Of a stretch of 64,000 nucleotides of DNA, positions 95 through 41,575 are shown piece by piece; positions within the stretch are counted from its first letter, which is position 1; each line of letters begins with the position of its first letter. Under the pieces are notes generated by a model that was not told the DNA's origin, made no database searches, and saw only the letters and a program-made list of their open reading frames with translations. The stretch covers positions 3,296,001 through 3,360,000 of the forward strand of contig OY970166.1 of assembly GCA_963706595.1 (NCBI GenBank), written 5' to 3'. The stretch is from an uncultured cyanobacterium. Its GTDB lineage: Bacteria > Cyanobacteriota > Cyanobacteriia > Cyanobacteriales > Nostocaceae. Both the position numbers and the translations under genes were made by a program.

Positions 95-331
95 ATGGCG
101 AATATCAAACTTTCTGAACTACACGCTGCTGGTTCTGAATTATTCAACGATTCTGAAAGTTTCTTGAATGAATTCAGCGATGTAGACTCCATTTCCGGTG
201 GTGGAATTGGCGGCTACGCTGGAGGAGTTAGCAACCCAGCAACATTAATGAAGCTAGCTGAGGCATTTGTGACTGTATATGCTATTGGTCACGTGACCGT
301 GTTAGCTAAATCATTCAGCGCAAACATTTAA
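95..331 (+). CDS. RiPP precursor peptide 1 (double-glycine leader)
   Basis: Leader MANIKLSEL..SELFNDSESFLNEFSDVDSISGG, AGGAG RBS, Ser/Thr-containing hydrophobic core, paralogous to the next ORFs. Confidence 0.85.
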   Translation: MANIKLSELHAAGSELFNDSESFLNEFSDVDSISGGGIGGYAGGVSNPATLMKLAEAFVTVYAIGHVTVLAKSFSANI

Positions 332-492
332 TGGTTCTGGTTTACTACAGAGCTTGATGGTTTTCCAGGGATTAAAGATAAAAAGCTATCTATGTGAATA
401 ACATGAGCTTTTGTTATTACCAATAATCCCTGTGGTCTAGCTAAATCTAAGCAATTTTCAGTTCATTACAACAAGTCTTTTAGGAGAAAATC

Positions 493-738
493 ATGGCAAA
501 TATTACACTGTCCGAATTAAACTCTGCTGGTTCTGAATTGTTTCAAGATTCTGAAAGTTTTTTGAATGAATTCAGCGATGTAGACTCCATCTCTGGTGGT
601 CAAGGCTACGGTGGTGGACTAGGCGCTCAAGTTGCTGTCAGTGATCCTACGACACTGAATAAGCTCGCTGGCGCATTTGTGACTGTATATGCCATTGGTC
701 ATGTAACTGTGTTAGCCAAGTCATTTAGTGGCATTTAA
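493..738 (+). CDS. RiPP precursor peptide 2
   Basis: Same leader ending SISGG; conserved AFVTVYAIGHVT core; RBS. Confidence 0.85.
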   Translation: MANITLSELNSAGSELFQDSESFLNEFSDVDSISGGQGYGGGLGAQVAVSDPTTLNKLAGAFVTVYAIGHVTVLAKSFSGI

Positions 739-907
739 TGACTTTGGGTAACTGCTGAAATTGATGGCTCTTTAGGAATTAAAGGTAAAAACTAATTTAT
801 GTGATTACCAATAATTCCTAAGAGCCGACTAGACACCATCTTGATCTTCACTGAAACTAACAAGTCTTCACAAGTTCACAAGTTCACAAGTCTTTTAGGA
901 GTACATC

Positions 908-1159
908 ATGGCAAATATCACTCTTTCTGAATTACACGCTGCTGGTTCTGAACTATTCAACGATTCTGAAAGTTTCTTGAATGAATTCAGCGATGTGGAT
1001 TCCATCTCTGGTGGAGCAGCAGTTGCCGCTACAGGTGCAACCTATGCCGCCAGCAATCCTTTGACACTGACCAAATTGGCTGAAGCCTTTGTGACTGTAT
1101 ATGCCATTGAACACGTAACTATCTTGGCTAAATCCTTCAGCCTAACTGGTGTTTACTAG
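908..1159 (+). CDS. RiPP precursor peptide 3
   Basis: Same leader and core family; RBS AGGAG. Confidence 0.85.
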   Translation: MANITLSELHAAGSELFNDSESFLNEFSDVDSISGGAAVAATGATYAASNPLTLTKLAEAFVTVYAIEHVTILAKSFSLTGVY

Positions 1160-1303
1160 CTCTAGTTAACAACTCGAATAAATGGCTCTTTGGGGATGAA
1201 AGGCATGATTTGATTACCACTTATCCCCAAGAGCCAGACAGATTCAACGCTCTCGATTTTCATTGAAACAAACAAGTCTTCACAAGTCTTTTAGGAGTAC
1301 ATC

Positions 1304-1573
1304 ATGGCTAATATCACTCTTTCTGAATTACACGCTGCTGGTTCTGAACTGTTCAACGATTCTGAAAGTTTCTTGAATGAACTCAGCGATGTTAATTCCA
1401 TCTCTGGTGGACAAATTGGCTACGCTGGTGGTGCTACCGTCGCTACAGGTGCAACCTATGCCGCCAGCAATCCTTTGTCACTGACCAAGTTGGCTGAAGC
1501 CTTTGTAACTGTATATGCCATTGAACACGTAACTATCTTGGCTAAATCCTTCAGCCTAACTGGTGTTTACTAA
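1304..1573 (+). CDS. RiPP precursor peptide 4
   Basis: Same leader and core family. Confidence 0.85.
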   Translation: MANITLSELHAAGSELFNDSESFLNELSDVNSISGGQIGYAGGATVATGATYAASNPLSLTKLAEAFVTVYAIEHVTILAKSFSLTGVY

Positions 1574-1721
1574 TCACTGTGATTAGTTACTTCAAATAAA
1601 TGGCTCTTTGGGGATGTAAGGCATGATTTGATTACCAGTAATCCCCAAGAGTTAGCCAAATTCAACGCTCTCGATTTTCACTGAAACAAACAAGTTCTCA
1701 CAAGTCTTTTAGGAGTACATC

Positions 1722-1973
1722 ATGGCTAATATCACTCTTTCTGAATTACACGCTGCTGGTTCTGAACTATTCAACGATTCTGAAAGTTTCTTGAATGAAT
1801 TCAGCGATGTAGATTCCATCTCTGGTGGAGCAGTAGTTGCCGCTACAGGTGCAACCTATGCCGCCAGCAATCCTTTCACATTGACCAAGTTAGCTGAAGC
1901 CTTTGTAACTGTATATGCCATTGAACACGTAACTATGTTGGCTAAATCCTTCAGCCTAACTGGTGTTTACTAG
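1722..1973 (+). CDS. RiPP precursor peptide 5
   Basis: Near-identical to precursor 3. Confidence 0.85.
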   Translation: MANITLSELHAAGSELFNDSESFLNEFSDVDSISGGAVVAATGATYAASNPFTLTKLAEAFVTVYAIEHVTMLAKSFSLTGVY

Positions 1974-2117
1974 CTCTAGTTAACAACTCAAATAAATGGC
2001 TCTTTGGGGATTAAAGGCATGATTTGATGACCAGTAATCCCTAAGAGCCAGACAGATTCAACGCTCTCGATTTTCACTGAAATAAACAAGTCTTCACAAG
2101 TCTTTTAGGAGTACATC

Positions 2118-2369
2118 ATGGCTAATATCACTCTTTCTGAATTACACGCTGCTGGTGCTGAATTGTTCAACGATTCTGAAAGTTTCTTGAATGAATTTAG
2201 CGATGTCGATTCCATCTCTGGTGGTCAAGTTACCATCGCTACAGGTGCTACCTACGTCGCCAGCAATGCTAGTACATTGACCAAATTAGCTGAAGCTTTT
2301 GTAACTGTATATGCCATTGAACACGTAACTATCTTGGCTAAATCCTTCAGCATAAGTGGTGTTTACTAA
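2118..2369 (+). CDS. RiPP precursor peptide 6
   Basis: Same leader and core family. Confidence 0.85.
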   Translation: MANITLSELHAAGAELFNDSESFLNEFSDVDSISGGQVTIATGATYVASNASTLTKLAEAFVTVYAIEHVTILAKSFSISGVY

Positions 2370-2517
2370 TCACTGTGATTAGTTACTTCAAATAAATGGC
2401 TCTTTGGGGATTAAAGGCATGATTTGATTACCAATAATCCCTAAGAGCCAGACAGATTCAACGCTCTCCATTTTCACTGAAACAAACAAGTCTTCACAAG
2501 TCTTTTAGGAGTACATC

Positions 2518-2769
2518 ATGGCTAATATAACTCTTTCTGAATTACACGCTGCTGGTTCTGAACTATTCAACGATTCTGAAAGTTTCTTGAATGAATTCAG
2601 CGATGTAGATTCCATCTCTGGTGGAGCAGCAGTTGCTGCTATAGGTGCAACCTATGCCGCCAGCAATCCTTTCACATTGACCAAGTTAGCTGAAGCTTTT
2701 GTAACTGTATATGCCATTGAACACGTAACTATCTTGGCTAAATCCTTCAGCATAAGTGGTGTTTACTAA
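2518..2769 (+). CDS. RiPP precursor peptide 7
   Basis: Same leader and core family. Confidence 0.85.
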   Translation: MANITLSELHAAGSELFNDSESFLNEFSDVDSISGGAAVAAIGATYAASNPFTLTKLAEAFVTVYAIEHVTILAKSFSISGVY

Positions 2770-2917
2770 TCACTGTGATTAGTTACTTCAAATAAATGGC
2801 TCTTTGGGGATTAAAGGCATGATTTGATTACCAATAATCCCCAAGAGCCAGACAGACTCAACGTTCTTAATTTTTAAGAAAACAAATAAGTGTTCACAAG
2901 TCTTTTAGGAGTAATTC

Positions 2918-3163
2918 ATGGCAACTATCACTCTTGATCAACTATATGCTACTGGCTCTGAACTGTTCCACGATTCCGAAAGCTTTCTCAATGAACTGAG
3001 TGATGTCGATTCTAGCTCTAAGGATCAATACAACGTTGTCGGCGGCATAATTACATTCACTGCATTCGCTGGAGCATTTGTTGGTACGTATGCCATTGGT
3101 CATGCTACTTATGTGGCCAAGTCATATAGTCAACCATACTATGGGTATGGGCGGCGCTTCTAG
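2918..3163 (+). CDS. Divergent RiPP precursor peptide 8
   Basis: GSELFHDSESFLNELSDVDS leader; AFVGTYAIGH core; RBS. Confidence 0.75.
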   Translation: MATITLDQLYATGSELFHDSESFLNELSDVDSSSKDQYNVVGGIITFTAFAGAFVGTYAIGHATYVAKSYSQPYYGYGRRF

Positions 3164-3617
3164 CTTTGTAGTTAACTATTAATCTTGATGGCTGTCTTGA
3201 GATTAAAGGTAAAAAGTAAGCAATTCTATCTGAGCAAAAACCTCATAATACAAAATAATGTTAAACATTCAGTTTCACATAAAATATAGAATTGCCCACT
3301 CTTATCTTAATCAGGTTTTGCATAACAAAAGCCTTACAGCCAGCCAAATTTAAAAAAATATGCTGTAATTCGATAACTAAATTGAAACTTAATTAAGACT
3401 AGGATCACAATTGGTGGATAAATCTGGCGACAATCGTCAAGATTGCTCAATTACCTAAATTAGATGAATTTAATTTAGTAGTCGTGGAAGATTGGGAATA
3501 AATGACAGTTTAACCTGAGCCAGGATAGCACATTAGTTGACGAATGATTAAGCTGACACTTACTGAAAGTAGCTAGCATTAATTCATTACTCAATATTTT
3601 GTGTGGAAATCAAGTAA

Positions 3618-3881
3618 ATGGCAAGAATTGTAATTTCTGAACTACACCCGACTAATTCCGAAAGCTTTTTAATCGAAATAACAGATATGTTTTCAATATC
3701 TGTGTATGGGGGGAATCAATATGTAATTGACTATGGATTTCATCAAATGCTGACCTTTACTTATAAGCTGATGGATTTTATGTTGTCAGCATTTGCTATC
3801 TACAGTATTGTCTCCCTTGCACATTCATTTATTACTGCGTCTGAGCTTAACTTTGCACCTGTTCAGTTTTACTCTTTCTAA
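3618..3881 (+). CDS. Highly divergent precursor-like peptide 9
   Basis: MARIVISEL..SESFL..VYGG leader-like part; hydrophobic AFAIYSI..LAHSF core similar to the others. Confidence 0.6.
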   Translation: MARIVISELHPTNSESFLIEITDMFSISVYGGNQYVIDYGFHQMLTFTYKLMDFMLSAFAIYSIVSLAHSFITASELNFAPVQFYSF

Positions 3882-4015
3882 TTATTGAATCTAAGTTGAC
3901 ATGATGACTAAAAAAATGTTGTGTGCAATCAATGCTTGGATAGGAATCCTCTGGTTTTACAGTTTCTTGATTAACCAGGAACAAGTTTTCACATTACTGA
4001 GGAGTATTTAACGCC

Positions 4016-5197
4016 ATGCCATTTTTATTAAGCTATCAAAATGTTTTTGACTACCTAATTCCCCTGGGATTATGTACTGAAGAAGAACGTTCATTGAGCA
4101 ATATTGAACTAAAACCTGCTAAAAACTTTAACTTATTACTCAGTTTATCAGAGGATAAGAAACTGCTAGTTAAGCAAGAGCGTCACAACCGAGAAGGAAA
4201 AACCGCCGGTGAGTTTGTGCAGGAATGGCGAATTCATGAGTTTTTGCAAAGAAACCCTGAACTTAGCTATGTGCGCCCTTTGCTTTCAGAAGCAGTACAT
4301 TTTGATGCAGAAAATTCGATCATTATTTTCAACTATCTCAATAATTATCGAGATGTAGCGGATTTTTACACCAAGGAGAATATTTTTCCTACACAGGTGG
4401 CGACCAAAATTGGCACTATTCTGGCATTAATTCATCGCGTTAGTATTCAACGTCCTGAGTATCGGGAGTTCTTTGAAAATTCTCAGGATGTACCGAGTCA
4501 AGATCCACCCAAACTAAATCAGAGAATGGATCGGATTACGCCGGAAATCTTTGGTAACGTTCCGGCTGACGGGTTGAAATTCTTTGCTCTTTATCAACGT
4601 TACGATAGTTTGGGTCAGGCGATCGCACAAGTAGGTAATTCCTATACTCCTTACTGTTTGACTCATAACGACATGAAGCTAAACAACATTCTCATCTCCT
4701 TAAATTGGCAAGATGTGAATTTAAATAGCTCATCCTCAGACCAAAGCATGATTCGATTAATTGACTGGGAACGCTGTTCTTGGGGAGATCCAGCTATCGA
4801 TTTAGGCTCATTACTCGCTAGTTACTTGCAATTATGGCTGTATAGCGTAGTCGTTGGTAAAGGAATGGAAATTGAAGAGTCTTTACGTTTAGCTACAACG
4901 CCTTTGCAAACACTCCGTCCTTCACTTGCTGCACTAGTTAAAGCTTATTTAGCAGAATTCCCCCAAATCTTAGAAGATCGTCCTGATTTCCTGCAACGAG
5001 TAGTGCAGTTTTGCGGTTTAGCCTTAATTCAATCTATTCAAGCCACACTCCAGCATGAAAAAACTTTTGGTAATCCTGGTATCAGTATGCTCCAAGTTGC
5101 TAAGAGTTTATTGTGTCGTCCAGAAGCATCTATACCCACTATTTTCGGTATGGATGCGTCGGATTTGACTCCTACTCAATATTCATCTGCACGTTAA
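4016..5197 (+). CDS. APH/choline-kinase-like phosphotransferase (class V lanthipeptide LanK-like Ser/Thr kinase)
   Basis: LLVKQE, HNDMKLNNIL (HxDxxxxN) and LIDWE motifs; next to precursors and a HopA1-like gene. Confidence 0.8.
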   Translation: MPFLLSYQNVFDYLIPLGLCTEEERSLSNIELKPAKNFNLLLSLSEDKKLLVKQERHNREGKTAGEFVQEWRIHEFLQRNPELSYVRPLLSEAVHFDAENSIIIFNYLNNYRDVADFYTKENIFPTQVATKIGTILALIHRVSIQRPEYREFFENSQDVPSQDPPKLNQRMDRITPEIFGNVPADGLKFFALYQRYDSLGQAIAQVGNSYTPYCLTHNDMKLNNILISLNWQDVNLNSSSSDQSMIRLIDWERCSWGDPAIDLGSLLASYLQLWLYSVVVGKGMEIEESLRLATTPLQTLRPSLAALVKAYLAEFPQILEDRPDFLQRVVQFCGLALIQSIQATLQHEKTFGNPGISMLQVAKSLLCRPEASIPTIFGMDASDLTPTQYSSAR

Positions 5198-5207
5198 AGC
5201 GTTTGGA

Positions 5208-5403
5208 AGACGCGATAGAAGACGCGATAAATCGCGTGATAGAAGACGCGATAAATCGCGTCTCTACAAAATATTTGGAAGCCCCCTCATCGCTTGCGGG
5301 GAGGGGGTTGGGGGTGGGGTTCTTGTACCTCATAACACCGGGAAGACGCGATAAATCGCGTCTCTACACAATATTTGGAAGACGCGATTTATCGCGTCTC
5401 TAC
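5208..5403. repeat. Cluster of palindromic REP-like repeats (AGACGCGATAAATCGCGTCT) plus a GC-rich hairpin element
   Basis: Several copies of the palindrome; the GC-rich part recurs inverted near 27681-27720. Confidence 0.8.
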
Positions 5404-5444
5404 AATTTTTTTCAACACACTCTCTTATTTACAGGCCAGCTTTT

Positions 5445-6551
5445 ATGCAACTATTAGATTCGCTACAAACACAACTAGCTACTATTCCTGAGCCTTTGCA
5501 GACATCAATACAAGACATTATTCATAAAGTTGAAATTGTTTCCCATCATTGTATTAAGCACCCAAACTATAAAAGCGTAGAATTAACTGAGCAAGCAGTT
5601 TCCCGCTTTCAAAAATTGCCGTTAGACCTCCAGAACAAATATTTAGCACTCCAATTGCGTAGTTTTCTTTATGGTGTCTACTACAACGGTTCTTTGCAAG
5701 AGGAACTCAATCTCACATCAGATGGAGAGTCAAAAAATGTAGCATTGAATCGGGATTTAGAAAATAATAGCTTTTTGGGTGTAGATATCGGTTTCTATGA
5801 CCGCTTACATGAAAGTAACAGAGGTGAAGGCTACTTCAGCCACGATTGGCTGGTAATCAAAGAAGAAACAGATGGTGCTTTGGCTGTGCATAAGGGTGGT
5901 TTAACTCTGCACATTGAGCGTGAGCAACACTTGCGACCAGAAGATCAAGCTGTAACTATCGGTAGTTTAGTTCCGATCAAATTACCCAAGAATGTGGTGC
6001 AGAATGGATTCTATATGGCAGTTGGCAATGAAGCTGCTCATGGTGATCAAGAAATAGTCAGGATCTACTTTAATTTATCCCCAGACGGTGCTGTTGCTGT
6101 CATGGATGGTTTGACTACCCAACTCAATGCTCTGCCAATTTCCTTCACATTTAAAGCCCTATATAATCCTACAGATTATGGACGTTGTGACTCAGCAGTG
6201 CTTTACTTTGACAAACACAACTATGAAGTTGTTCGTCCAGTATTAGAACGGGTGTATACAGAAAATAAATCACATTTTGGCGATTCAGTGCCTTTGTTTA
6301 CTAAATTACTTGCGCCAGGGTTAGCTCTTGCGGAAGAACCAAATAGCAAGTTTACAGACCGTGAAAGTTTTGGGATGAACCGATGCCAAATTATTGCTAA
6401 TGCTTTGCTTGATGTTTGGCAGCAAGATAATGATACGCCAGCAGGTAGGTTAGAATCTATTCTGAAACATTTCTCTATGCTGGAAATTGAATTGCAACGT
6501 CCTTATCTCAATTCCCATTCTGAAGATATCTTTACTTCTTTGCAGTTTTGA
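5445..6551 (+). CDS. HopA1-like protein (class V lanthipeptide LanY-like phospho-Ser/Thr lyase)
   Basis: VRIYFNL, R.DSAVLYF, PLFTKLLAPGLALAEEP and SFGMNRC motifs typical of the HopA1 family. Confidence 0.75.
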   Translation: MQLLDSLQTQLATIPEPLQTSIQDIIHKVEIVSHHCIKHPNYKSVELTEQAVSRFQKLPLDLQNKYLALQLRSFLYGVYYNGSLQEELNLTSDGESKNVALNRDLENNSFLGVDIGFYDRLHESNRGEGYFSHDWLVIKEETDGALAVHKGGLTLHIEREQHLRPEDQAVTIGSLVPIKLPKNVVQNGFYMAVGNEAAHGDQEIVRIYFNLSPDGAVAVMDGLTTQLNALPISFTFKALYNPTDYGRCDSAVLYFDKHNYEVVRPVLERVYTENKSHFGDSVPLFTKLLAPGLALAEEPNSKFTDRESFGMNRCQIIANALLDVWQQDNDTPAGRLESILKHFSMLEIELQRPYLNSHSEDIFTSLQF

Positions 6552-7032
6552 TATTGTATAGAACCTCACCCCAACCCTCTCCTTACTAAGGAGAGGGAGC
6601 CGGAGTTGTTTGTTTGGGAACTTCCAAGGAATAAAATACTTAATTTGTCAGGTGGGTTAGTGTGTAGGGTGTGTTGTCGCGTAGCGCAACGCACCATCTT
6701 CAATTCTCAATGCTGATATTATATATAGTTGCTTAATGTCATATTATACAATCTAGCTGCACGACAGCTTATTACAAGTTTTTCGTTTCAGTGTTAATTA
6801 CTTTTTATGTGCTTAATATATCTTTAATTGTTTCGGCTTTTACCTTGAGACACCTATCTCTGGAGATATTTTGATAACGTATCAATTAAATTGTCCTAAA
6901 TTTGGCTAACCTAAGCGTTTTTTCTCGCTTGTGATAAATCCGGGAAATGGGTTCTATATATGATATAATTAGAGATTTTGCATTAAAAAACTGGTGACTC
7001 AAAAAATTACTTGCCTAAATCCTGATTGCAAC

Positions 7033-7126
7033 GCAATACTGTTCGGTTAAGCAAATTTGTGCGCCAAAAACCCTTGTAGAGACGTTCCATGGAACGTCTC
7101 TACACTCCTTAACCGAAAAGTATTGC
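7033..7126. mobile_element. Small MITE/REP-like element
   Basis: 19-bp terminal inverted repeats (18/19 match) around a perfect 30-bp palindrome at 7075-7104; a related palindrome lies at 9764-9793. Confidence 0.6.
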
Positions 7127-7488
7127 CTCAAGGCTATATCTCAAAAAATGGCGCTGCCAGGAAGTTGCGAGCGTACAGAGTAAGATAATCGCGAGGTGCA
7201 GAAGCGAAAGGCGGTTTCTGTGATTGAGTTTTAGATTCTACGCCACTTTGAATCTACAAAACTATTTGTATATCAAGATTTGCTTACATAATAGGTCATC
7301 AAAATTTAATATGAACATCTTTTTTTTTGTTTTGGTGTGTAGGGTCAAGATTTTTGACAAACTACTAGCCCAATTCAAGTATTTGTGTGTAATCAAAAAA
7401 AGCTAAATACACGGAGTAAATTATTTCTAACTTTAGATAGAGTTAGAAAATAATTTCTTTTTGAAAAGAATTACAGAGGGGAAACTGA

Positions 7489-8319
7489 ATGCAAGCGGGA
7501 ATAGGAAAATATTTGGCAATCTTCGAGCCAGAAGTATTGCAAAATTTTTTGCAGCTAATTCGATTAAAATTTCATCTAAATTTTGGATTTGTTCTTTTAG
7601 GAGCATTAAGTTTTGCTAAACAGATAGATATTCCACTAATAGTTTCTATATTAGTGATGTACTTATCTTTTAATGTCTGTCTCTACGGTGGCATTTATAC
7701 AATGAATGCTATTACAGACCTCGAAAAAGATGCTAAACATCCACTTAAAAAAAATCGCCCCTTACCTTCAGGAAGAATTAGCATGAATACAGCCATAATC
7801 TTGGCTGTATCTTTAATTTCTTTAGGACTATTCGTGGGTTTTTTCTACTTCGGTAGAAACATTGGGTTGCTCTATATTACCTTTATTGGTGTTAACATTT
7901 TCTACTCATTTGTAGCCAGGAACGTCCCATATCTTGAATTATTTGTCAATGCAAGTACCATGCCAATTCGATTATTAATGGGTACTTTTTTAGCTGTTGA
8001 TGGTTTAGTACCGACGGTTTTGATGTTTGCAGCTTTTTGTATGGGAATTGGTTTTCTTTCTATAAGAAGAATAGTTGAGAAAGATATAAATAACTGGACA
8101 GAAGCTCGCCCTGCTTTAAAAGCTTATCAGGGAAATATCATGGTTTGGTTACAATTTATCTTTTTTGTTGGACTTCTTTTCGCATGTGAGTTTGATCCTT
8201 TTATCCACCAAGATTTTGTGGGCTACTTGCTGATGGTGATTTATTACATAGTTTTCTGTTTAGGAACTCATGTATTTCCTGCAATAAGAGGTTACTGGAC
8301 TCAATACTACGGGTATTGA
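7489..8319 (+). CDS. UbiA-family prenyltransferase (decaprenyl-phosphate phosphoribosyltransferase-like)
   Basis: Multi-TM protein with N(A)xxDxxxDxxHPxKxxRPLPSG motif. Confidence 0.75.
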   Translation: MQAGIGKYLAIFEPEVLQNFLQLIRLKFHLNFGFVLLGALSFAKQIDIPLIVSILVMYLSFNVCLYGGIYTMNAITDLEKDAKHPLKKNRPLPSGRISMNTAIILAVSLISLGLFVGFFYFGRNIGLLYITFIGVNIFYSFVARNVPYLELFVNASTMPIRLLMGTFLAVDGLVPTVLMFAAFCMGIGFLSIRRIVEKDINNWTEARPALKAYQGNIMVWLQFIFFVGLLFACEFDPFIHQDFVGYLLMVIYYIVFCLGTHVFPAIRGYWTQYYGY

Positions 8320-8621
8320 TCATATTGAGTAAAAGACGTTGAAAAAGAATACATTGTTAGACTAATTTCTTCATAATTTATTAGTGTGTTAATTAAACTG
8401 ACCACTAATTAATTCTTAGCATTATCTTGGATTGAGTTAGTCTTAAATCTATATCATTCATCTACCAGTCGTACATAATTTTCGGGTTGTATCTGATTCA
8501 TGCTTTATTTTTCAATCAAGAACTGCTTCTGCTAGGACAAAAATATCTAGATTTCGATAATCAATTTGATAATTTTGTCCTAGTAGGATTTCTTTGACAA
8601 CATATTATTATCCTCAAGGGC

Positions 8622-9299
8622 TTGGTTAATATGAGTTTATTTATTGGCTTAAATCAAACTAAACAAATACAAAGCATTAATTTTGATAAGTTCAATGCGG
8701 TTATTTTCGATGTTGATGGGACTTTCTACAATCTGAAAAAGATGTATAGTCTAATGCGCTTGGAAATCCTCAAATACTATCTAAATCATCCTTGTGAAAT
8801 TCGGGATATCAAAATTATCATAGATTTCCTGCGGGAACGTGAACGAAATGCCTTTGAAATTGTTGATGATTTGGAGAATGCTCAATATGAATGGGCAGCC
8901 AAAGCATCAGGAGCTTCATTAGAAAAGGTTCGCGCTTTAGTACAAAAATGGATTTTTAAAGTCCCTTTGGAACATATATATACTTGCCGCTATCTACCAG
9001 TTTTGGAGTTATTTGAAAATCTCACGCAGAAAGGTATAGCTACTGGTATATTTTCAGATTATCCAGCAACAGCAAAGCTGGCTAAATTAGGTCTATCTCC
9101 TAACTGCATTGTTAGCTCAACAGATGAAAATGTTCGTCGGCTCAAGCCCGACCCTCAAGGTTTATTTGTTGCTACTGAAATTCTAGGAGTTTCAGTGAAA
9201 CAATGTTTATTTATCGGTGATCGTGATGACAGGGATGGGGAATGTGCCAGGAGAGCAGGTATGCCATATCTAATATTAGGTAAAAGCTTTCTAGTATAA
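8622..9299 (+). CDS. HAD-superfamily hydrolase
   Basis: FDVDGT, KPDP and IGDRDDRD motifs; start uncertain. Confidence 0.85.
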   Translation: MVNMSLFIGLNQTKQIQSINFDKFNAVIFDVDGTFYNLKKMYSLMRLEILKYYLNHPCEIRDIKIIIDFLRERERNAFEIVDDLENAQYEWAAKASGASLEKVRALVQKWIFKVPLEHIYTCRYLPVLELFENLTQKGIATGIFSDYPATAKLAKLGLSPNCIVSSTDENVRRLKPDPQGLFVATEILGVSVKQCLFIGDRDDRDGECARRAGMPYLILGKSFLV

Positions 9300-9763
9300 G
9301 CTAATGAGCTAATGCGGATTGGGCGCAATCTTAGAAACATAAATATGGCTCTTCCGTACCAAAGTGTTCAGCAAAAATTGAAGAAGCTGCCCAGCACATA
9401 TTCATGCTTAACGTTGAAGAATTAAACACTTTCTTACGCCAACGCTTAGAAAAAAATGATTGATAGATGTAGGAGGGTATCCGCCGAGGGGTAGAGTCGA
9501 GGGGAATGTTGTGACTTGAAACATAAATTGCTTCATTTTCACAAATGGGTTATTTTATTGGGAATCAGCCCTGGTAATTGAGATATATAAATTTTTCCGT
9601 CCACCTACTTAATTTTTCAGGTGGGTTAGGATCTTAGTCTTTAACCCACTATAAACTTAAGCGATCGCTTAACGAAAAACCTCACCCTGCTTTTGCTATG
9701 CGAAGGTAAGGAGAGGGATTTTTGGAATGATTGTTGTTCGGTTTTGCATGGTGACATCACGTT

Positions 9764-9793
9764 TGTAGAGACGTTTCATGAAACGTCTCTACA
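9764..9793. repeat. Perfect 30-bp palindrome (REP-like)
   Basis: TGTAGAGACGTTTCATGAAACGTCTCTACA, a compensatory variant of 7075-7104. Confidence 0.8.
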
Positions 9794-9810
9794 TTTTTTG
9801 TCGCAGCTAT

Positions 9811-10593
9811 CTATGCTGGTTTTACCAAATTAGCTGATGCTTGAATATTTGTATTTTCTTGCAGATTGGCGACAATTTCGACAGTGGCTATTTGTTGCTG
9901 TAGCCAATTGGTAAAAAAGTCTCCCATAATTTGAAACCGCAAGTTGTCATCTAATTCTGGTTTAATTATTTCCTCAACTGCAATGATATGCGCTCCTTTG
10001 GGTGTAATGATTGGTTTAAGAATTTGTGGGGGATTAGCAGCAAAAACTGCGGCGGCGATCTCGGCTCGAAAATCAATCCGGCGGCGGATTCCCTGATAGC
10101 CACCAGAACGACGGGTTTCGGGATTTTGAATGTATTGACGAGCAATTTCTTGGAAGCTGATTTCGCCTTCTTGGAGGGCATAAAATAGTTCTAAGGCTAA
10201 ATCTTCATCATCTAAAATCACTTCATAAGTGACTGCGCCAAAATATTTTGCTTGATGAGCATAAAAGAATGGTTCGATTTGCTCTGCAAATAAATGATTG
10301 GCTAATTTGGAGGATGTGAGGTTGATTTTAGCTATTTCTTCTAAGTCATCCAGAGAAAGATGATGTTTTTCTAACCAAGACCAAGTATCTTCAGCTTTGA
10401 GTAATTGGTTAGCTAAACGAAGATTATCTGCTGCTGTTTGTAGTTCTTCTGTGCTGATTTCAATTCCTGCTTTATCGGCTGCTTCTGCAATGATTTTTTG
10501 AGTGGCGATCGCTTCTAATATGACTGGAATTTGACAAGCCATTTTTATATAGTAAATAATGTCTTCGGTTGAAACTTTTAAAATGTTTGACAT
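9811..10593 (-). CDS. Parvulin/PpiC-type peptidyl-prolyl isomerase associated with type I secretion
   Basis: SFQEIARQY..SGGYQG..PIITPKGAHII rotamase pattern; downstream of HlyD. Confidence 0.8.
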   Translation of the reverse strand: MSNILKVSTEDIIYYIKMACQIPVILEAIATQKIIAEAADKAGIEISTEELQTAADNLRLANQLLKAEDTWSWLEKHHLSLDDLEEIAKINLTSSKLANHLFAEQIEPFFYAHQAKYFGAVTYEVILDDEDLALELFYALQEGEISFQEIARQYIQNPETRRSGGYQGIRRRIDFRAEIAAAVFAANPPQILKPIITPKGAHIIAVEEIIKPELDDNLRFQIMGDFFTNWLQQQIATVEIVANLQENTNIQASANLVKPA

Positions 10594-10934
10594 AGCTAAA
10601 GTTCTCCAATTATTAACTAATTAGAATTGTTTTTTGACTGTTGAAAAGCCAGTATCTTATTCATCATTTTTGCTTGATATATTGTTTATTGTCTCTATCT
10701 AATGATAGTTTTAATGTTTTGATTAATTATCGTCAGGAATGGCATTATATTTGATTACAAATTAAATCAACCAATGAGCAATATCCCCCTAGTTGATAAA
10801 GGTTGAACACCTCAATAATAGGGGTAATTATTAACAATGAATATTTAGCATCTAGCCCTGACAAAGATGTTGGGTTTCCTTGCGTCAACCCAACCTACGT
10901 TGCCTTATTTTAGCTGTGTCACTGGACTAAAAGG

Positions 10935-12482
10935 CTAAAGTTCTAGACCGCCTTGTTGCAATTTCTTAAAGGGATCTAAGATAAAGTCAATGACTCGGCG
11001 CTGACGAATAACTACCTCTGCGGTGGCTGTCTGACCGGGGGTTAAATTAACGCGTTGGTTAGCAGCTTGTACATAAGGTTGATCTAGGGTGATATCTAAA
11101 TCATAAGTGTCTATACTGCCTTGGTTGCTAGACTGAGTTCTAGAATTAGGTGAAATCCAACTCACACGCCCTTCCATCACGCCATAATCTTGATAGGGAT
11201 AGGCATCAAATTTGATTTTAACTGGCATTCCTTCCTCTAAGAAACCACTGTGTTGGCTGGGTATCTGGGCTTTGAGAATCAATTTACTATCTTGAGGCGC
11301 AATTTGGGCAATGATTTGTCCTGGTTCGACTACAGGCCCTGGTTTGCGGATGGGCATCTCAAAAATTATGCCATCAATAGGCGATCGCACTACGCGCTGT
11401 TTCATCTGAATCTGCAAGGACGAAATCTGACTCTTGGTTTGAGCCATTTCTGAGTCCAGTGTACTAATTTGCGTTTCCATGTCTTTGAGTTGTTCCTGGC
11501 TTCTCAGCACTGCTAATTTACCAGCTTGAACAACGCTTTGATAGCTACTTTGCTGTTCTTGTAAACGTAGTTTTGCTTGCTCAATATCCGCGACAACTTG
11601 ACTCATAGTCGCCTGATAGCGGCTCATTTCTTCTTTTAAACGTAGTTGCGCTTGAGTGACATCAGATTGTGCTTGTAAATGCAAGCGTTGGCTGTCCTCT
11701 GCTGTTTTTTCTAATTCCACAAGTTGGATTTGCGGAATTGCACCCTGTTCGTACAATTCGCGAAAGCGTGCAACTTCGGCGACATCTCTGTTAAAACGAC
11801 TATTAACTAACTTCTCAGTAGTCTCGGTAGAATTAATATTCTGCCGAGCTTGTTCAACTAAAGCCTGTCTTTCTAACCTTTGTAAATTAGACGCACTTTG
11901 TCTCGCATCCAGGGTTTGCTGCGCCTGATTAACTTGAGACATTTTTTCTAATTCTTGGGCTTGATTTTGTTGTTCTTGGATATTGATCGCCAGCATCAAT
12001 TGGTTTTTCAGCAGCTTAAGTTGCGCTTGGCGATCGCTTAATCCTTGTAGTTGTGTTTGTCTCTGTTGCAATTCTTTTTCCAGGACATCAGAATCCAACT
12101 CCAGCAGCACCTGTCCAGCTTTAACTATTGCACCTTCTTGGACATTGACAGTTTTCACAGTCCCAGGAACTGGAATACCTAATTGATGCGTTGCTCCTTT
12201 GGGTTCTAAACGCCCTCTAGCGCTGCCGGTTTCATCAATTTTGGTGAGCATCGACCAAGGTAAAATGATCGAGGTAAATCCTACCAAAAAGTACAGCATA
12301 GAACGTGTCCAAAGTCTTGGTAAAGCATCTAGCAGTTCTTCTGTACCATAAAACCAATCATTGGTTTGGTTTTCTACCTGTGTCTGATTATCAACAACAG
12401 CACTAGAGTTTTCAACCTGGTGATTTTGGTCTTGCTGTGGTGCAGCAAGTACGGATGATAAATGTTGAGATGGGTTTGGCAT
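10935..12482 (-). CDS. HlyD-family secretion adaptor
   Basis: N-terminal TM, long coiled coil, RSPIDG, KFDAYPYQDYG and LTPGQTATAEV motifs. Confidence 0.92.
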   Translation of the reverse strand: MPNPSQHLSSVLAAPQQDQNHQVENSSAVVDNQTQVENQTNDWFYGTEELLDALPRLWTRSMLYFLVGFTSIILPWSMLTKIDETGSARGRLEPKGATHQLGIPVPGTVKTVNVQEGAIVKAGQVLLELDSDVLEKELQQRQTQLQGLSDRQAQLKLLKNQLMLAINIQEQQNQAQELEKMSQVNQAQQTLDARQSASNLQRLERQALVEQARQNINSTETTEKLVNSRFNRDVAEVARFRELYEQGAIPQIQLVELEKTAEDSQRLHLQAQSDVTQAQLRLKEEMSRYQATMSQVVADIEQAKLRLQEQQSSYQSVVQAGKLAVLRSQEQLKDMETQISTLDSEMAQTKSQISSLQIQMKQRVVRSPIDGIIFEMPIRKPGPVVEPGQIIAQIAPQDSKLILKAQIPSQHSGFLEEGMPVKIKFDAYPYQDYGVMEGRVSWISPNSRTQSSNQGSIDTYDLDITLDQPYVQAANQRVNLTPGQTATAEVVIRQRRVIDFILDPFKKLQQGGLEL

Positions 12483-12517
12483 AAGTAATTCAACAGTTTA
12501 TTTTCCAGGACTTGGGA

Positions 12518-12730
12518 TGTAATTCGTAATTCGTAATTCGTAATTCGTAATTCGTAATTAAAAGTCTATGTTTTGAATTTTGAATTTTGAATTTTGAATT
12601 TTGAATTGATTCATCCCTTGTCCTTTGTTCAATTGAAAATTTCCCAGGTTTTCGACGAAGAGGTAGGGGGAAATCACCCCTTTCTTCTAAGTGGAGCATA
12701 GGGGATTGGGGATTGGGGATTGGGGATTGA
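12518..12730. repeat. STRR-type heptamer tandem repeats (AATTCGT, TTTTGAA, GGGGATT)
   Basis: Visible tandem 7-mers between the ABC transporter and HlyD genes. Confidence 0.85.
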
Positions 12731-12777
12731 GATGGAGAATTTTCTTCCCCCCTGCACCCTGCACCCCTGCCTCTTCT

Positions 12778-15700
12778 TCAGGCTGTTTGTGCTGTTTGAG
12801 CTAGTTGTTGCTGGTTGAGATAGAAGTAATGACCTTTTTTGGCTATTAATTCATCGTGAGTCCCGCTTTCGACGAGTAAGCCTCGATCTAAAACTAGAAT
12901 CAGGTCAGCATTGCGGACTGTGGACAGGCGATGGGCGATAATTAGGCTGGTGCGCCCTTGAAGGATGGTTTTCAGGTTATTTTGGATAATGCGCTCAGAT
13001 TCCGAATCCAGGTGGCTGGTGGCTTCGTCTAAGAGCAATAAGCGGGGATTTCCGAGTAACGCACGGGCGATCGCAATTCTTTGGCGTTGTCCACCAGATA
13101 ACATCCCCCCACCTTCACCAATTTGGGTCTCGTAGCCGGTCGGCATAAGTTTGATAAATTCATCGGCTCCTGCTAATCTTGCCGCTTCAATAATTTCCTC
13201 TAAAGTGGCTTCTGGGTGAGCAATATTGATATTTTCGCGGATAGTACCGCCAAACAAGAAGGTATCTTGATCGACAACTCCAATTTGAGAACGCAGCGAT
13301 CGCAAAGAAATACTAGTCACATCTTGGGCATCAATTAATACTTTGCCATCTGTCGGCAGATATAGTCCCAAGATCATCTTGGCGAGGGTTGTTTTTCCTG
13401 AACCACTACGCCCAACTACCGCTACAGTCTGCTCTGGGAGGATTTCAAAGCTGAGATTTTCTAGGACATTAATATCACTTTCTGGGTGATAGCGAAAAGT
13501 CACATTTTCAAACTTAATGTGTCCTTCTAATCTTGGTAAAAACTGCCGGGGGTGATGATGTAAATCTTCTTCTGGTTCTGCTTCCAGAACATCATTAATT
13601 CTTTCACTGGAAATAACTACTTCCTGGAATTGATTCCACAAAACCACTAACCTTTGAAAGGGGCGAATAACGTTGCCCAATAACATATTGAAAGCAACTA
13701 ACTGCCCAATTGTCAGTTGATTTTGAATGACTAACCATGCCCCGAACCATAGCAAACCTGTAGTTACTAACGTTTCAATGCCGGAGCTAAAAAGCTGCAT
13801 TTTGTTACTAATAATCTGCCCGGCAAAGGTCTTTTTAATCACATTATTTAATAGCTCTTCCCAATGCCAGCGCACTGTTTGTTCAATGGCCATTGAACGA
13901 ATTGAGCTAATACCTGTGAGTGATTGAATCAGATAACTATTTTCGTTGGCTGTGGCATTAAAAGCCTCACGATTAATGCGCCGAAAGAAAGGTGTCGCCA
14001 CCAGTGCCAGAATAAAGAATGGTGGGATGATGGTTAAACTTAGTAAAGCCATTGGGGCGCTATACCAAAACATTAATCCCACGTAAATAAACACTGTCAG
14101 CAAATCCAAAGTGATGGATAAAGCTTCTCCGGTGAGGAAGCGCTGAATTTTATAGTTTTCTTGGACGCGGGAAATAATATCACCAACGTAGCGGGATTCA
14201 AAAAAGGCTAAAGGTAGGCGGAAAGTGTGTTTAATAAACCCTACCAATAAGGCTACACTGATGCGGTTGGCTGTGTGATCTAGCAGATATTGGCGCAATC
14301 CATTAATGATCACACTGAATAAGCCAAAAATCAGTAACCCGAAACCCACAGCGTTTAATGTCAGGGTGCTACGTTGCACCAAAACTCGGTCTAATAGCAA
14401 CTGAGTTAATAGGGGCGTAACTAACCCAAATATCTGAATGAACACCGAAGCCATGAAGACTTCTAACAGGACTTTGGAATGAGGTTTGACTAATTCAAAC
14501 AACTGCCAAAATTGTGTACTGTTTTCTTCAGTTTCTTTAAGTTGGGCTGTGGGTTGTAATAACAACGCGTAACCAGTCCAACCAGCTTTAAATTCCTCAT
14601 GGGTGAGGGTGCGTTGACCGAAGGCGGGATCTCCCACAATCACCTGTTTTTTGCTGACTTCATAGACAACAACGTAGTGTCTGCCTTCCCAGTGCGCGAT
14701 CGCAGGTAAGGTTTGTTGTGCTAATTTATCTAAGCTGGCTTTCACCGGACGGGTAGTAAAACCGATACTTTCCGCCGCAGTTGTTAAACCCCGCAATGAT
14801 GCACCGGTGCGATTAATATTGGCTAAATCTCGCAGTCGGTTGACGCTCAAGCGCTTACCCCAATAGCGGCTAATCATCACCAAGCAAGCGGCTCCACAGT
14901 CAGCAGCGCTTTGTTGTTCATAGAACGGATACCTCTTGGTTAACCGTCCCCACCAATGTCCAGCTTTGACTGTAGGGCTAGGAAAATAGGCTTGTTTTCG
15001 CTTCTTTTTCGGTTCTGGGTCTGGTGGTGGTAACTGTCTAATCAGACTGGGGGTAATTGCTGGTGTAGGAGTGTCTTCTGTAACTTCCTGGGGATTTTGC
15101 GATAACTCGGCTAATTGCGGCCAGTATTCTAATACCAGTGGCCAATGGGCATTTTTCAGGCTATAAACCTTTGTAAGTTGAGTCGCGCGCCAATTTTCCT
15201 GCTGGGGATATACGTAGATGTTTCCCGGTGTTAATCTGCGTCCATCTGTGTGCTGTAGTTCTCCCTGATGCAATAACCACAGTTTGGTATCTTGGAATAA
15301 AGTCACTGGGAGTGAGTCGCCTTCGACGGTGTGGCGCTCAAATAAAGTCAAGGCTTTGAGTATTTCTTCTACAGACCCATTATGTGGCACTAGGGACGTT
15401 TGACAACATAGTAACAGTAAATCCCACAATTCGGCACGTTGTTTGAGGCGATCGCGAATACTCGGATGTTTGCGAATTACCTCTTGTAAAGATGCTTGCG
15501 GAAAATAAGCCAGCTTTAACTTCACAGAAGCTCTCGCCACATAAGGGCTAAATTCTTCTTCTGTAAATAAAGTCAGTTCGCCAAATGATGCTCCTGTTGT
15601 CAGGGTGGTAATTAAGTTATTCGAGCCATCTAAAAGCCTGACTTTACCCCCCAGGACGAGATAGATCCCATTCGGTGCGTTTGCTGCTTGCCAAAATTGC

Positions 15701-15828
15701 TTGGCTACAGGTGGTTCGACAATTTCTACCCCAATCAAACATCTTTCAATTTCTTGCTCTGATAACGGCTCACCCAGGCTGTGGATAAGTTGTTGCGCTA
15801 AGTATTCCGGGGAAAATGCTGATGCCAT
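12778..15828 (-). CDS. Peptidase-containing ABC transporter (cNMP-like + C39 + TM + ATPase)
   Basis: QQSAADCGAACL (catalytic Cys), HWEGRHYVVV, GRSGSGKT, LSGGQRQR, LLLDEATS. Confidence 0.93.
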   Translation of the reverse strand: MASAFSPEYLAQQLIHSLGEPLSEQEIERCLIGVEIVEPPVAKQFWQAANAPNGIYLVLGGKVRLLDGSNNLITTLTTGASFGELTLFTEEEFSPYVARASVKLKLAYFPQASLQEVIRKHPSIRDRLKQRAELWDLLLLCCQTSLVPHNGSVEEILKALTLFERHTVEGDSLPVTLFQDTKLWLLHQGELQHTDGRRLTPGNIYVYPQQENWRATQLTKVYSLKNAHWPLVLEYWPQLAELSQNPQEVTEDTPTPAITPSLIRQLPPPDPEPKKKRKQAYFPSPTVKAGHWWGRLTKRYPFYEQQSAADCGAACLVMISRYWGKRLSVNRLRDLANINRTGASLRGLTTAAESIGFTTRPVKASLDKLAQQTLPAIAHWEGRHYVVVYEVSKKQVIVGDPAFGQRTLTHEEFKAGWTGYALLLQPTAQLKETEENSTQFWQLFELVKPHSKVLLEVFMASVFIQIFGLVTPLLTQLLLDRVLVQRSTLTLNAVGFGLLIFGLFSVIINGLRQYLLDHTANRISVALLVGFIKHTFRLPLAFFESRYVGDIISRVQENYKIQRFLTGEALSITLDLLTVFIYVGLMFWYSAPMALLSLTIIPPFFILALVATPFFRRINREAFNATANENSYLIQSLTGISSIRSMAIEQTVRWHWEELLNNVIKKTFAGQIISNKMQLFSSGIETLVTTGLLWFGAWLVIQNQLTIGQLVAFNMLLGNVIRPFQRLVVLWNQFQEVVISSERINDVLEAEPEEDLHHHPRQFLPRLEGHIKFENVTFRYHPESDINVLENLSFEILPEQTVAVVGRSGSGKTTLAKMILGLYLPTDGKVLIDAQDVTSISLRSLRSQIGVVDQDTFLFGGTIRENINIAHPEATLEEIIEAARLAGADEFIKLMPTGYETQIGEGGGMLSGGQRQRIAIARALLGNPRLLLLDEATSHLDSESERIIQNNLKTILQGRTSLIIAHRLSTVRNADLILVLDRGLLVESGTHDELIAKKGHYFYLNQQQLAQTAQTA

Positions 15829-15849
15829 TTTTTGACCTCCAAGACAGAA

Positions 15850-16482
15850 TTATTTATTGGTCTGAATCAGATTTAATGACCAATTAAAATTAGGTTCGGA
15901 GTGAGATTGCAAATCGCCAATTCTAATTCCAGCATCCATTCGGCTTCGCTCATGACAAGCCTTGGTTTGGTCAGTTTCTGGTGGCTGGGAACTTTTCCGT
16001 TTAGTGGATAGTCCCATTTGTTTAAGTAGGCGATTAATGTGGCGATCGCTAATTTGGATGTTAAATTCGTTAGCTAAATGTTTGCTTAACCATTGGGCTG
16101 TCCAATAAGTAAATGCATAACCATAATCACGAGGGCTATGGCTGACCAACTCTTTCAAACGATCCAGATATTGATCATTCACAATTTTCGGTCTCCCAAT
16201 AGGTCGCTCATTCCACTTGTGCGCTAAACCTGCTTCCGCTAAACCAATCCAGTAACGCGCCATTTCCTGAGAACAACCGATAGTTTCACAGATTTGACTT
16301 TGAGATTTACCCACATCGGCTAATAACATAATTTCAATGCGCCGCCGATATTCTGGCTGTAAATCAGTTTGTAAGCTTTTCAGCAATGCCTTCTTTTGAA
16401 AAGAGGTTAAAAACTTACCTTCTTGAAAATTTTGGATGTTGTAATTTTCCAAGTTTTCGCTTTGACTAAGAGAGTGTGACAT
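15850..16482 (-). CDS. Helix-turn-helix protein resembling the IS630 transposase DNA-binding region (no DDE domain)
   Basis: HTH, GRP linker, then SPRDYGY..WTAQWL..ISDRHINRLLKQMGLS winged-HTH pattern. Confidence 0.7.
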   Translation of the reverse strand: MSHSLSQSENLENYNIQNFQEGKFLTSFQKKALLKSLQTDLQPEYRRRIEIMLLADVGKSQSQICETIGCSQEMARYWIGLAEAGLAHKWNERPIGRPKIVNDQYLDRLKELVSHSPRDYGYAFTYWTAQWLSKHLANEFNIQISDRHINRLLKQMGLSTKRKSSQPPETDQTKACHERSRMDAGIRIGDLQSHSEPNFNWSLNLIQTNK

Positions 16483-19422: not shown

Positions 19423-19467
19423 TTTGACAGGGGAGTTCCAAATCCCCCTGCTCCCCTGCTTCTTCAA

Positions 19468-33190: not shown

Positions 33191-33286
33191 ATTTATACGG
33201 ACACTTTATATGGATATATCTTGCCAATCTTTATTTTGCATGGCAATATAAGAAGTAACAACCAGTTACGGACACTATTTAAGTTT

Positions 33287-35468: not shown

Positions 35469-35469
35469 C

Positions 35470-35585
35470 GTTTCAATCCCTGATAGGGATTTTAGTGATT
35501 GAAAGTCTAAAGGCGGAAGAACGAGCAGTAGTACGTTCACAGGGTATTTTTTCAATCCCTGATAGGGATTCAATGAATTTAAGCG
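35470..35585 (-). CRISPR. Mini-CRISPR: two degenerate repeats (35470-35505, 35549-35585) and one 43-nt spacer
   Basis: Both repeats keep the 21-nt AATCCCTATCAGGGATTGAAA 3' hairpin and handle of the main array repeat, in the opposite orientation. Confidence 0.85.
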
Positions 35586-35646
35586 CTTTAGACTTATACT
35601 ATAATTATAGTACACAAGTTTTACACAGGGTAAAAAAGTTTCCCTG

Positions 35647-35689
35647 GTTAATACAATGTGAACTCTATGTACTGTTCATTATTCTGACT
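35647..35689 (+). promoter_or_regulatory. Predicted promoter (-10 TACAAT at 35652-35657) and PAM-flanked target of the mini-array spacer
   Basis: GTT followed by AATACAATGTGAAC, which matches 12 of the first 14 spacer nt. Confidence 0.65.
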
Positions 35690-35699
35690 AATCAGGAAA

Positions 35700-35996: not shown

Positions 35997-36055
35997 AATG
36001 AGATTTTCAACGTATTAAATGAGACAAGCCTTTACCGCCAATAACTACTGCGGCT

Positions 36056-37075: not shown

Positions 37076-37168
37076 ACACTCGAATTTATAAAATTAATTA
37101 TGTGGTTAATCAATATCCGTTTTACGTGCGATAAATAAATACCTATTTAATTACATTGGATGTAGATA

Positions 37169-40507: not shown

Positions 40508-40559
40508 ATAAATCTGTTCTTTTGGTACATCATAAAAAATCATTCTTTGGAGACTAATT

Positions 40560-41570: not shown

Positions 41571-41575
41571 CAGCT

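Follow-up and report, generated by a model that had tools for sequence, protein, structure and literature searches.

A tandem array of cysteine-free double-glycine peptides beside a putative kinase/HopA1-lyase dehydratase in a Nostocaceae genome

Gene content of the locus

We analyzed a 64,000-nucleotide stretch (the window; positions 3296001–3360000 of the single 5.57-Mb contig OY970166.1) from an uncultured Nostocaceae cyanobacterium, the first part of which holds a tandem array of small genes for peptides with a double-glycine (GG) leader next to a kinase, a HopA1-like protein and a C39 exporter, an arrangement that we interpret as a gene cluster resembling those for peptides that are synthesized ribosomally and modified post-translationally (RiPPs). 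Families were assigned with Pfam over 13 + 31 = 44 open reading frames (ORFs) of the window and with NCBIfam for the cluster proteins, and precursors were recognized with a hidden Markov model (HMM) of the leader. The original prediction, made from the DNA letters and their ORFs, had listed precursors, an APH-type kinase, a HopA1-like protein, a peptidyl-prolyl isomerase (PPIase), an HlyD protein and a C39 exporter, and all of these were found in place by the ORF list and Pfam. The genes of the system are given below; HMM denotes a match to the leader model.

95..331, + strand, A-type precursor 1: GG leader, Cys-free core ending in LAKSFS; HMM
493..738, + strand, A-type precursor 2; ORF list, HMM
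908..1159, + strand, A-type precursor 3, the partner chain in the complex model; HMM
1304..1573, + strand, A-type precursor 4; ORF list, HMM
1722..1973, + strand, A-type precursor 5; ORF list, HMM
2118..2369, + strand, A-type precursor 6; ORF list, HMM
2518..2769, + strand, A-type precursor 7; ORF list, HMM
2918..3163, + strand, divergent precursor: leader kept, GG shifted downstream to ...YNVVGG, core end ...VAKSYS
3618..3881, + strand, B-type precursor, very divergent: leader MARIVISELHP..., ...SVYGG; single copy immediately upstream of the kinase
4016..5197, + strand, LanK-like APH-fold Ser/Thr kinase (PF01636, 1e-9)
5445..6551, + strand, LanY-like HopA1-domain phospho-Ser/Thr lyase (PF17914, 4.9e-60)
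9811..10593, − strand, PPIC-type PPIase, the 'SurA' of Wang et al. (PF00639, 8.5e-10)
10935..12482, − strand, HlyD-family type I secretion adaptor (PF13437, 6.5e-25; TIGR01843, 205 bits)
12778..15828, − strand, long-type exporter of 1016 aa with cNMP-binding, C39 and ATP-binding cassette (ABC) domains (PF00027; PF03412, 2.1e-41; PF00664; PF00005)

The nine precursors of the window are 78–89 residues long, are all encoded on the + strand and share an N-terminal leader, and none of them falls into an NCBIfam family. A-type copies 1–7 (95–2769) are close paralogues of one another. As first proposed, the peptides are free of cysteine (0 of 9 in the window, and 0 of 10 when a further copy just upstream is counted). 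With ten members this array is the largest among 41 loci compared, the other 40 having at most eight. The kinase and HopA1 genes lie on the same strand with 248 nt between them. The exporter carries a cysteine within the sequence ...AADCGAACL..., which we take to be the C39 catalytic motif. The PPIase scores 70.6 bits against TIGR04500 (PpiC_rel_mature), which is under the cut-off of 180, and a signal peptide is not evident in its sequence.

A conserved leader and hypervariable cores

The leader HMM matches 126 ORFs, and 124 of these have a GG or GA no more than 14 residues from the leader end. Conservation resides in the leader, the 124 cores (120 unique) being hypervariable. An alignment of 59 sequences shows no variation at leader residues G13, D19 and E21 and at least 90% conservation at I4, L9, L16, F17 and the GG. 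Compared with the ORFs of at least 200 residues in the genome, the cores are enriched in Ser (11.3% versus 6.4%) and Thr (8.5% versus 5.7%), giving 19.8% versus 12.1% for the two combined, and are depleted in Cys (0.57% versus 0.97%). Every one of the 124 cores contains Ser or Thr, and 102 contain no Cys.

The core type of the window, …TLTKLAEAFVTVYAIGHVTxLAKSFS… (A-type), is found in 44 of 129 cores (43 unique), spread over 11 related loci and this genome. Both serines of its K-S-(F/Y)-S ending are invariant (43/43 each), and Lys (42/43), Tyr (40/43) and His (38/43) are nearly so in the vicinity of this serine pair. The core string highlighted in the original prediction therefore needs to be read with some care: it fits five of the nine window precursors and does not fit the other four, and its description as regularly spaced Thr/Ser was overstated because only one element, the C-terminal S-x-S, is invariant across the 43 unique cores.

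Two precursors of the window depart from this pattern. The divergent copy at 2918–3163 has counterparts in two related loci (L031 and L032). The B-type precursor, with a leader of the form M-A-K/R-I-I-I-S-E-L..., ...VYGG and a core containing ...FAIYSIVSLAKSF..., occupies the same place, immediately upstream of the kinase, in L031–L034, L036–L038, L041 and L042 as well, making ten loci in all. It is kept as a single copy across genera, which suggests that it does something other than the amplified A-type genes do.

A kinase and lyase related to the lexapeptide dehydratase

The HopA1 protein matches PDB entry 9dk1_B ('Lyase') with an E-value of 2.1e-7, and the kinase matches 9dk1_A ('Kinase') with an E-value of 0.0038, so that the likeness to this pair is remote. 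According to the available text of a 2025 review, 9DK1 is the LxmK–LxmY lexapeptide dehydratase heterodimer (PMC12141560). As in LxmKY and in CaoK–CaoY, the kinase and HopA1-like lyase of the window are encoded by separate, adjoining genes.

The residues expected for catalysis are intact in both proteins. In the kinase, K53, E70, H217-N218-D219, N224 and D250 are invariant among 35 sequences. In the lyase, R206, K237, R247 and Y254, positions taken from the alignment with 9DK1, are invariant in 34 precursor-linked homologues; they reproduce the Arg/Lys/Arg/Tyr set of CaoY, with a spacing of 31/10/7 as opposed to 32/10/7 for CaoY R187, K219, R229 and Y236. The available text on CaoY reports that R187A and K219A abolish elimination and that R229Q is inefficient, while Tyr236 was aligned to the catalytic Tyr158 of SpvC and was not mutated (Liang et al. 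2022, PMC9486802). Together, the 9DK1 matches and the intact lyase residues support the earlier reading of the locus as a RiPP-like system in which a kinase and a HopA1-type lyase accompany GG-leader precursors and a C39 exporter.

Predicted docking of the leader on the kinase

We modeled a complex of the kinase, the lyase and the precursor at 908–1159, giving an alignment for each chain, in three runs and with three controls. The interface score ipSAE was 0.70 in the three runs and 0.00 for the best control. The runs share at least 26% of their contacts, and the predicted local distance difference test (pLDDT) of the partner is at least 39. Confident contacts are made between leader residues 10–30 (GSELFxDSESFLNE) and kinase residues 188–199, 279–301 and 352–375, and the model thus supports binding of the conserved leader to the kinase. 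A leader has likewise been modeled on the kinase for CaoA–CaoK, as far as the available text describes it (PMC9486802), and the same docking is predicted here. Unlike that of LxmKY and CaoKY, the leader of the window peptides is of the GG type and would be cut by the C39 domain of the exporter.

Relation to lanthipeptides

Kinase and HopA1-like lyase pairs dehydrate Ser/Thr in class V lanthipeptides and thioamitides. Class Va systems require LanK and LanY together with LanD and LanX, and class Vb relies on LanC, as described in the available text of PMC12291118. Measured against class Va, the locus has LanK and LanY as remote homologues and lacks LanD, LanX and a core cysteine. LanC, which marks class Vb and classes I–IV, is missing from the 44 window ORFs, and the original statement that no LanC, Flavoprotein or YcaO family occurs in the window was confirmed over the same ORFs. 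The LanD-type flavoprotein family PF02441 is absent from the window ORFs as well; the two Flavoprotein-family matches of the genome are at distances of about 567 kb and 2.3 Mb. LanC (PF05147) has no match in the 5.57-Mb genome, a weak negative, since the search control matched in none of 14 genomes and absence genome-wide is therefore not provable. The cluster itself holds one APH-like gene. Genome-wide, an LxmK-like gene occurs in full twice, in both cases as the partner of a HopA1 gene, and once as a 61-position fragment, so that no second kinase of the LanX kind was seen in a search that used no LanX-specific model.

With no core Cys and no LanD, LanX or LanC, neither lanthionine nor aminovinyl-cysteine (AviCys) could form, just as originally argued from the Cys-free cores. 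Since LanK and LanY are present and the other class V parts are missing, the pair would work like a class V dehydratase without the locus being a lanthipeptide cluster. It is extremely improbable that the locus nevertheless serves true lanthipeptides, with substrates that bear Cys and a cyclase or decarboxylase encoded elsewhere in the genome. Cys does occur in 22 of the 124 cores of related loci, and the available text of Liang et al. 2022 includes Cys-containing cyanobacterial 'type-B' LanA candidates, which were collected after a Cys filter (PMC9486802). Against this stand the Cys-free precursors of the locus and five equally Cys-free paralogues elsewhere in the genome, the distance of the Flavoprotein-family matches, the pairing of both full LxmK-like genes with a HopA1 gene and, more weakly given its control, the unmatched LanC.

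Conservation in related genomes

Homologues of the HopA1 protein were found in 40 of 61 genomes searched, including 36 of 36 of the same family (Nostocaceae; 1–5 copies each) and 3 of 24 from other families of the order. For synteny, up to 20 kb around 40 HopA1 matches in 26 genomes were labeled by the leader HMM and BLAST; as several stretches stop at contig ends, the counts are lower bounds. All 40 of these related loci have the kinase, and in 39 it adjoins the HopA1 gene and shares its strand. Leader-HMM precursors, one to eight per locus, occur in 36/40, and in 26 of these 36 a precursor lies immediately upstream of the kinase. The C39-ABC exporter, HlyD and a PPIase homologue of at least 45% identity are found in 27/40, 26/40 and 27/40, respectively.

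Contigs from RNA libraries, which derive from relatives (90–99% likeness; shares 0.05–0.06 in seven runs of four studies, with contigs of four runs, again of four studies, aligned to the window), cover the precursor genes. A 3,507-nt contig (run X2) spans 2790–6391 and thereby runs from the last precursors over the kinase into the lyase, and a 2,649-nt contig (run X4) spans 3729–6391, through the kinase and lyase. Contigs that bridge precursors, kinase and lyase provide a weak hint of expression.

Upstream genes, distant paralogues and a second kinase–HopA1 pair

In the 30 kb upstream of the window, where the original prediction had advised looking for more enzymes, a tenth precursor and two M16 peptidases were found, and neither a cyclase nor a decarboxylase; coordinates are relative to base 1 of the window unless given on the contig.

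−336..−79, tenth precursor, upstream of the window
−1221..−913, small ORF whose leader is related but decayed, upstream of the window
−4588..−1423 (contig ~3291412–3294577), two M16 (insulinase-type) peptidase genes with signal-peptide-like N-termini
contig 1416876–1418204, four tandem precursor paralogues of the same core type, outside the window
contig 5213125–5213382, single precursor paralogue of the same core type, outside the window

The M16 pair was named by eye and by family-level homology to the Pfam-confirmed M16 protein of the window at 29478–30752. Eight related loci (L031, L033, L035, L036, L037, L041, L042 and L046) likewise have such a pair, placed upstream of the array. Farther upstream, at about −13820 to −6000, is a lasso-peptide-like gene set, named by eye only, that comprises a PqqD-like small protein, a transglutaminase-like B2 protein, an HPr-kinase-like protein, a nucleotidyltransferase, glycosyltransferases and a split ABC transporter.

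By tblastn the precursor family numbers 15 genes in the genome: nine in the window, one just upstream and five at the two other loci. The five distant A-type copies are either modified in trans or not modified at all.

In an alternative view, the A-type peptides leave the cell with essentially no modification, as class-II-bacteriocin-like peptides or as an EbfG-like matrix or amyloid, while the kinase–lyase pair acts on a minority substrate such as the B-type precursor or stops at phosphorylation. The A-type genes at loci without enzymes and the B-type precursor fixed immediately upstream of the kinase in ten loci are in line with this view, and the core (…AFVTVYAIGHVT…), being hydrophobic and beta-prone, would lend itself to aggregation. 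EbfG peptides offer a precedent, as these GG-leader peptides use a C39 exporter (PMC12267927, available text), and the control genome of Synechococcus elongatus has no match to the HopA1 family. Several observations nonetheless make the alternative unlikely. The cores are enriched in Ser/Thr and none is without them, and the catalytic residues of the lyase are invariant in 34/34 precursor-linked copies. Moreover, conservation of the A-type leader reaches well upstream of the part that suffices for C39 cleavage, and it is this upstream segment that our model places on the kinase.

The second kinase–HopA1 pair of the genome, at contig 5461062–5463424, has no adjoining precursor or exporter and sits beside phylloquinone/menaquinone-type genes (named by eye). 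Together with the precursor-less pairs of four related loci (L066, L068, L069 and L070) it forms a separate group with ~51% identity to the window lyase, in which the position of the catalytic Lys (K237) is Gln in 5/5 and the Arg/Arg/Tyr residues are retained. From sequence identity, the ~50%-identity HopA1 match present in every same-family genome may be this precursor-less pair.

A UbiA–HAD insertion between lyase and PPIase

Two genes that the original prediction passed over, although they fall within its range, interrupt the cluster between the lyase and the PPIase:

7075..7104, no strand, 30-nt palindrome, left flank of the insertion, paired with 9764–9793
7489..8319, + strand, UbiA-family prenyltransferase-like membrane protein (PF01040, 7.5e-17)
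8622..9299, + strand, HAD-family hydrolase (PF00702, 4.6e-14)
9764..9793, no strand, 30-nt palindrome, right flank of the insertion (repeat search)

Neither UbiA nor HAD occurs in any of the 40 related loci, and in nine same-genus loci the PPIase directly follows the lyase with no UbiA between them. At E ≤ 1e-20, UbiA was matched in 0/10 same-genus and 0/14 same-family genomes, and in one of 16 genomes of other families (34% identity). The segment 7075–9793 has a G+C content of 0.36, compared with 0.41 in the first 6 kb of the window. The absence from relatives, the flanking palindromes and the lower G+C fit a recent insertion, and we read the two genes, on sequence grounds, as strain-specific rather than as a conserved part of the cluster. 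The RNA-library contigs leave 7349–9352 uncovered, which is not evidence by itself.

UbiA and HAD were considered as components of the system and rejected, given their absence from the 40 loci and the palindromes around them. It is very improbable that they tailor the product of this particular strain, for example by a prenyl or polyprenyl-phosphate-linked modification. Their position between lyase and PPIase on the precursor strand would suit such a role, and the nearest models to UbiA are those of decaprenyl-phosphate phosphoribosyltransferases, though it falls far under their cut-offs; their absence from the related and the nine same-genus loci, the lack of UbiA in all 24 same-family genomes, the palindromic flanks and the difference in G+C all speak against it.

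Relation to known cyanobacterial peptide families

The cluster fits a described group. Eyles et al. 2021 mined 1,340 HopA1 proteins and defined a 'Family 1A' of 570 peptides from 183 biosynthetic gene clusters, exclusively from Cyanobacteria, with a conserved double-glycine leader, several precursors per cluster and variable cores in which no Ser, Thr or Cys is conserved (Chem Sci; PMC8153245, available text). In the peptide table of its supplement there are 69 instances of the leader motif DSESFLNEL and 44 of the core motif LAKSFS, and a peptide of the TLTKLAEA...LAKSFS core type is included. The locus studied here has a HopA1 gene beside an APH phosphotransferase, a GG leader, non-identical precursors and Cys-free variable cores, and judged by these features it belongs to Family 1A, a cyanobacterial family of RiPP-like clusters with a kinase and a HopA1 lyase. 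Nothing essential differs; what is added is an array of ten precursors (at most eight in the 40 sampled loci) and the UbiA–HAD insertion. The novelty implied by the original prediction was accordingly not borne out, as the available part of PMC8153245 already lists both clusters of this type and the core family. Specific to the locus are the size of its array, the invariant S-x-S, the upstream M16 pair, the insertion and a separate pair elsewhere in the genome with the Lys-to-Gln exchange.

Two further groups resemble the locus. The group II 'bacteriocin' clusters of Wang, Fewer and Sivonen 2011 (PLoS One, PMC3140520) contain a long C39-ABC protein, HlyD, a SurA rotamase, an M16 peptidase, extra 'modification' genes and several GG precursors, and the available text never mentions a kinase; all the listed parts are present here, as a match to the text description. 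In S. elongatus PCC 7942, the EbfG1–4/PteB biofilm system has tandem genes for small GG-leader proteins beside a C39-peptidase exporter and an HlyD protein, and the available text reports that they are secreted and build an amyloid matrix (PMC12267927); the GG-leader/C39/HlyD layout is common to both systems, as compared by architecture. Nostolysamide belongs to a class II system and is not relevant to this cluster. A characterized product of the cyanobacterial kinase/HopA1 family was not found in the literature searched, which did not extend to subscription-only papers.

Proposed pathway and its weighing

In our view the locus is best explained by a kinase–lyase pair that dehydrates Cys-free GG-leader peptides, which are then cleaved by the C39 domain and exported; we give this explanation a probability of about 0.6. 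It draws on the gene content, the homology to a solved dehydratase, the intact catalytic residues, the conserved synteny and the supportive complex model. In the pathway that we propose, the ten tandem precursors would be made, along with their five paralogues at the two other loci, and the conserved 31-residue leader (...GSELFxDSESFLNEL...) would dock on the C-terminal lobe of the LanK-like kinase, itself paired with the LanY-like lyase as a heterodimer. The kinase would phosphorylate Ser/Thr of the Cys-free core and the lyase would eliminate the phosphate to give dehydroalanine (Dha) or dehydrobutyrine (Dhb), the invariant serines of K-S-(F/Y)-S being the likeliest sites. The C39 domain of the exporter would then cleave after the GG, the ABC–HlyD type I system would export the peptide, and further trimming may come from the pair of secreted M16 peptidases whose genes lie upstream. 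Formation of a thioether would not be possible.

A number of points weigh against this explanation. We infer every chemical step, the modified sites, the roles of PPIase and M16 proteins and the biological function. The kinase aligns over positions 25–344 of 347 of the LxmK model NF038156 at 81.7 bits, far under the equivalog cut-off of 315, and is by this comparison a remote LxmK relative and not an equivalog; the lyase is matched by no NCBIfam model. Of 157 solved complexes, 116 attained the ipSAE mark, as did 2 of 215 mismatched pairs; this calibration holds only roughly here since we supplied our own alignments, and as the related complex 9DK1 has been solved, the model may pass partly through likeness. 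The fold of the precursor in the model is uncertain (pLDDT 40–44). Furthermore, the five A-type paralogues have no genes for modifying or export enzymes nearby, and one kinase–HopA1 pair of the genome stands without a precursor beside it, so such pairs are not always tied to these peptides. The remaining Ser/Thr positions of the A-type core are just 30–67% conserved, and with two invariant serines among otherwise variable positions, the long poly-dehydro product once envisaged is not implied. Finally, the RNA-library contigs come from relatives, the libraries may contain DNA, and contig depth cannot rank genes.

If dehydration does take place, it could be the first step only, with Dha/Dhb captured by Lys or His (lysinoalanine or histidinoalanine), reduced to D-residues or hydrolyzed, by enzymes encoded elsewhere or spontaneously. 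The near-invariant Lys, His and Tyr beside the serine pair are suggestive in this respect, and no Cys thiol is available in the ten cores of the locus. We consider this extension distinctly unlikely, given that no candidate cross-linking enzyme or reductase was seen in the conserved cluster and that the mature peptide's activity or folding may account just as well for the conservation of Lys, His and Tyr. It would be a longer shot still to postulate a new RiPP class, in which the K-S-(F/Y)-S serines become Dha and are captured by a neighboring Lys or His without a cyclase, the fifteen gene copies supplying a reactive extracellular matrix or adhesive in bulk and not an antibiotic.

For the preferred explanation of dehydration followed by cleavage and export, a solved product would show how LanK/LanY dehydration is used without cysteine. 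The locus offers a handy entry point, with ten near-identical substrates, an intact enzyme pair, a clearly conserved two-serine motif and a set of leader residues predicted by the model to bind the kinase. As clusters of this kind have already been published, its value lies in the open chemistry of the product and not in the discovery of the cluster.

Other features of the window

Two features lie inside or at the edge of the cluster:

5218..5417, no strand, short palindromic repeat units in the kinase–lyase spacer (repeat search)
15850..16482, − strand, HTH/transposase-N-terminal-like ORF (PF13565, PF13592)

The HTH ORF is probably outside the peptide system, as its Pfam matches are transposase-type HTH domains. 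Short palindromic repeat units, including a 20-nt palindrome in three copies, are found in the intergenic stretches 5218–5417, ~6350–7350 and 9690–10000. Summed depth is very high over these stretches and the RNA-library contigs of relatives have many loose ends there, as expected for dispersed small repeats. In the same contigs the spacer 5218–5417 is exchanged, with a joint 5172->5409 that carries 176 other letters.

A secreted-type S8 subtilase gene (17908–19422) stands back to back with a second HlyD-family gene (19468–20964), whose product is 26% identical to the HlyD of the cluster. From its description in the available text, the 'group VI' S8-containing cluster type of Wang et al. (PMC3140520) may be what this pair at 17908–20964 represents.

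A CRISPR–Cas locus at 33221–45823 encodes Csc2, Cas6, Cas4 and Cas1, and judged by Csc2 it is presumably of type I-D. Its Cas3-like helicase seems to be split between overlapping ORFs at 33221–34117 (DEAD) and 34086–34520 (Cas3 C-terminal), and a 1112-aa ORF at 37169–40507 has no Pfam match. A histidinol dehydrogenase gene on the − strand (52676–54044) is likewise divided into two overlapping ORFs, which cover profile positions 9–126 and 124–410 and point to either a frameshift or a sequencing error.

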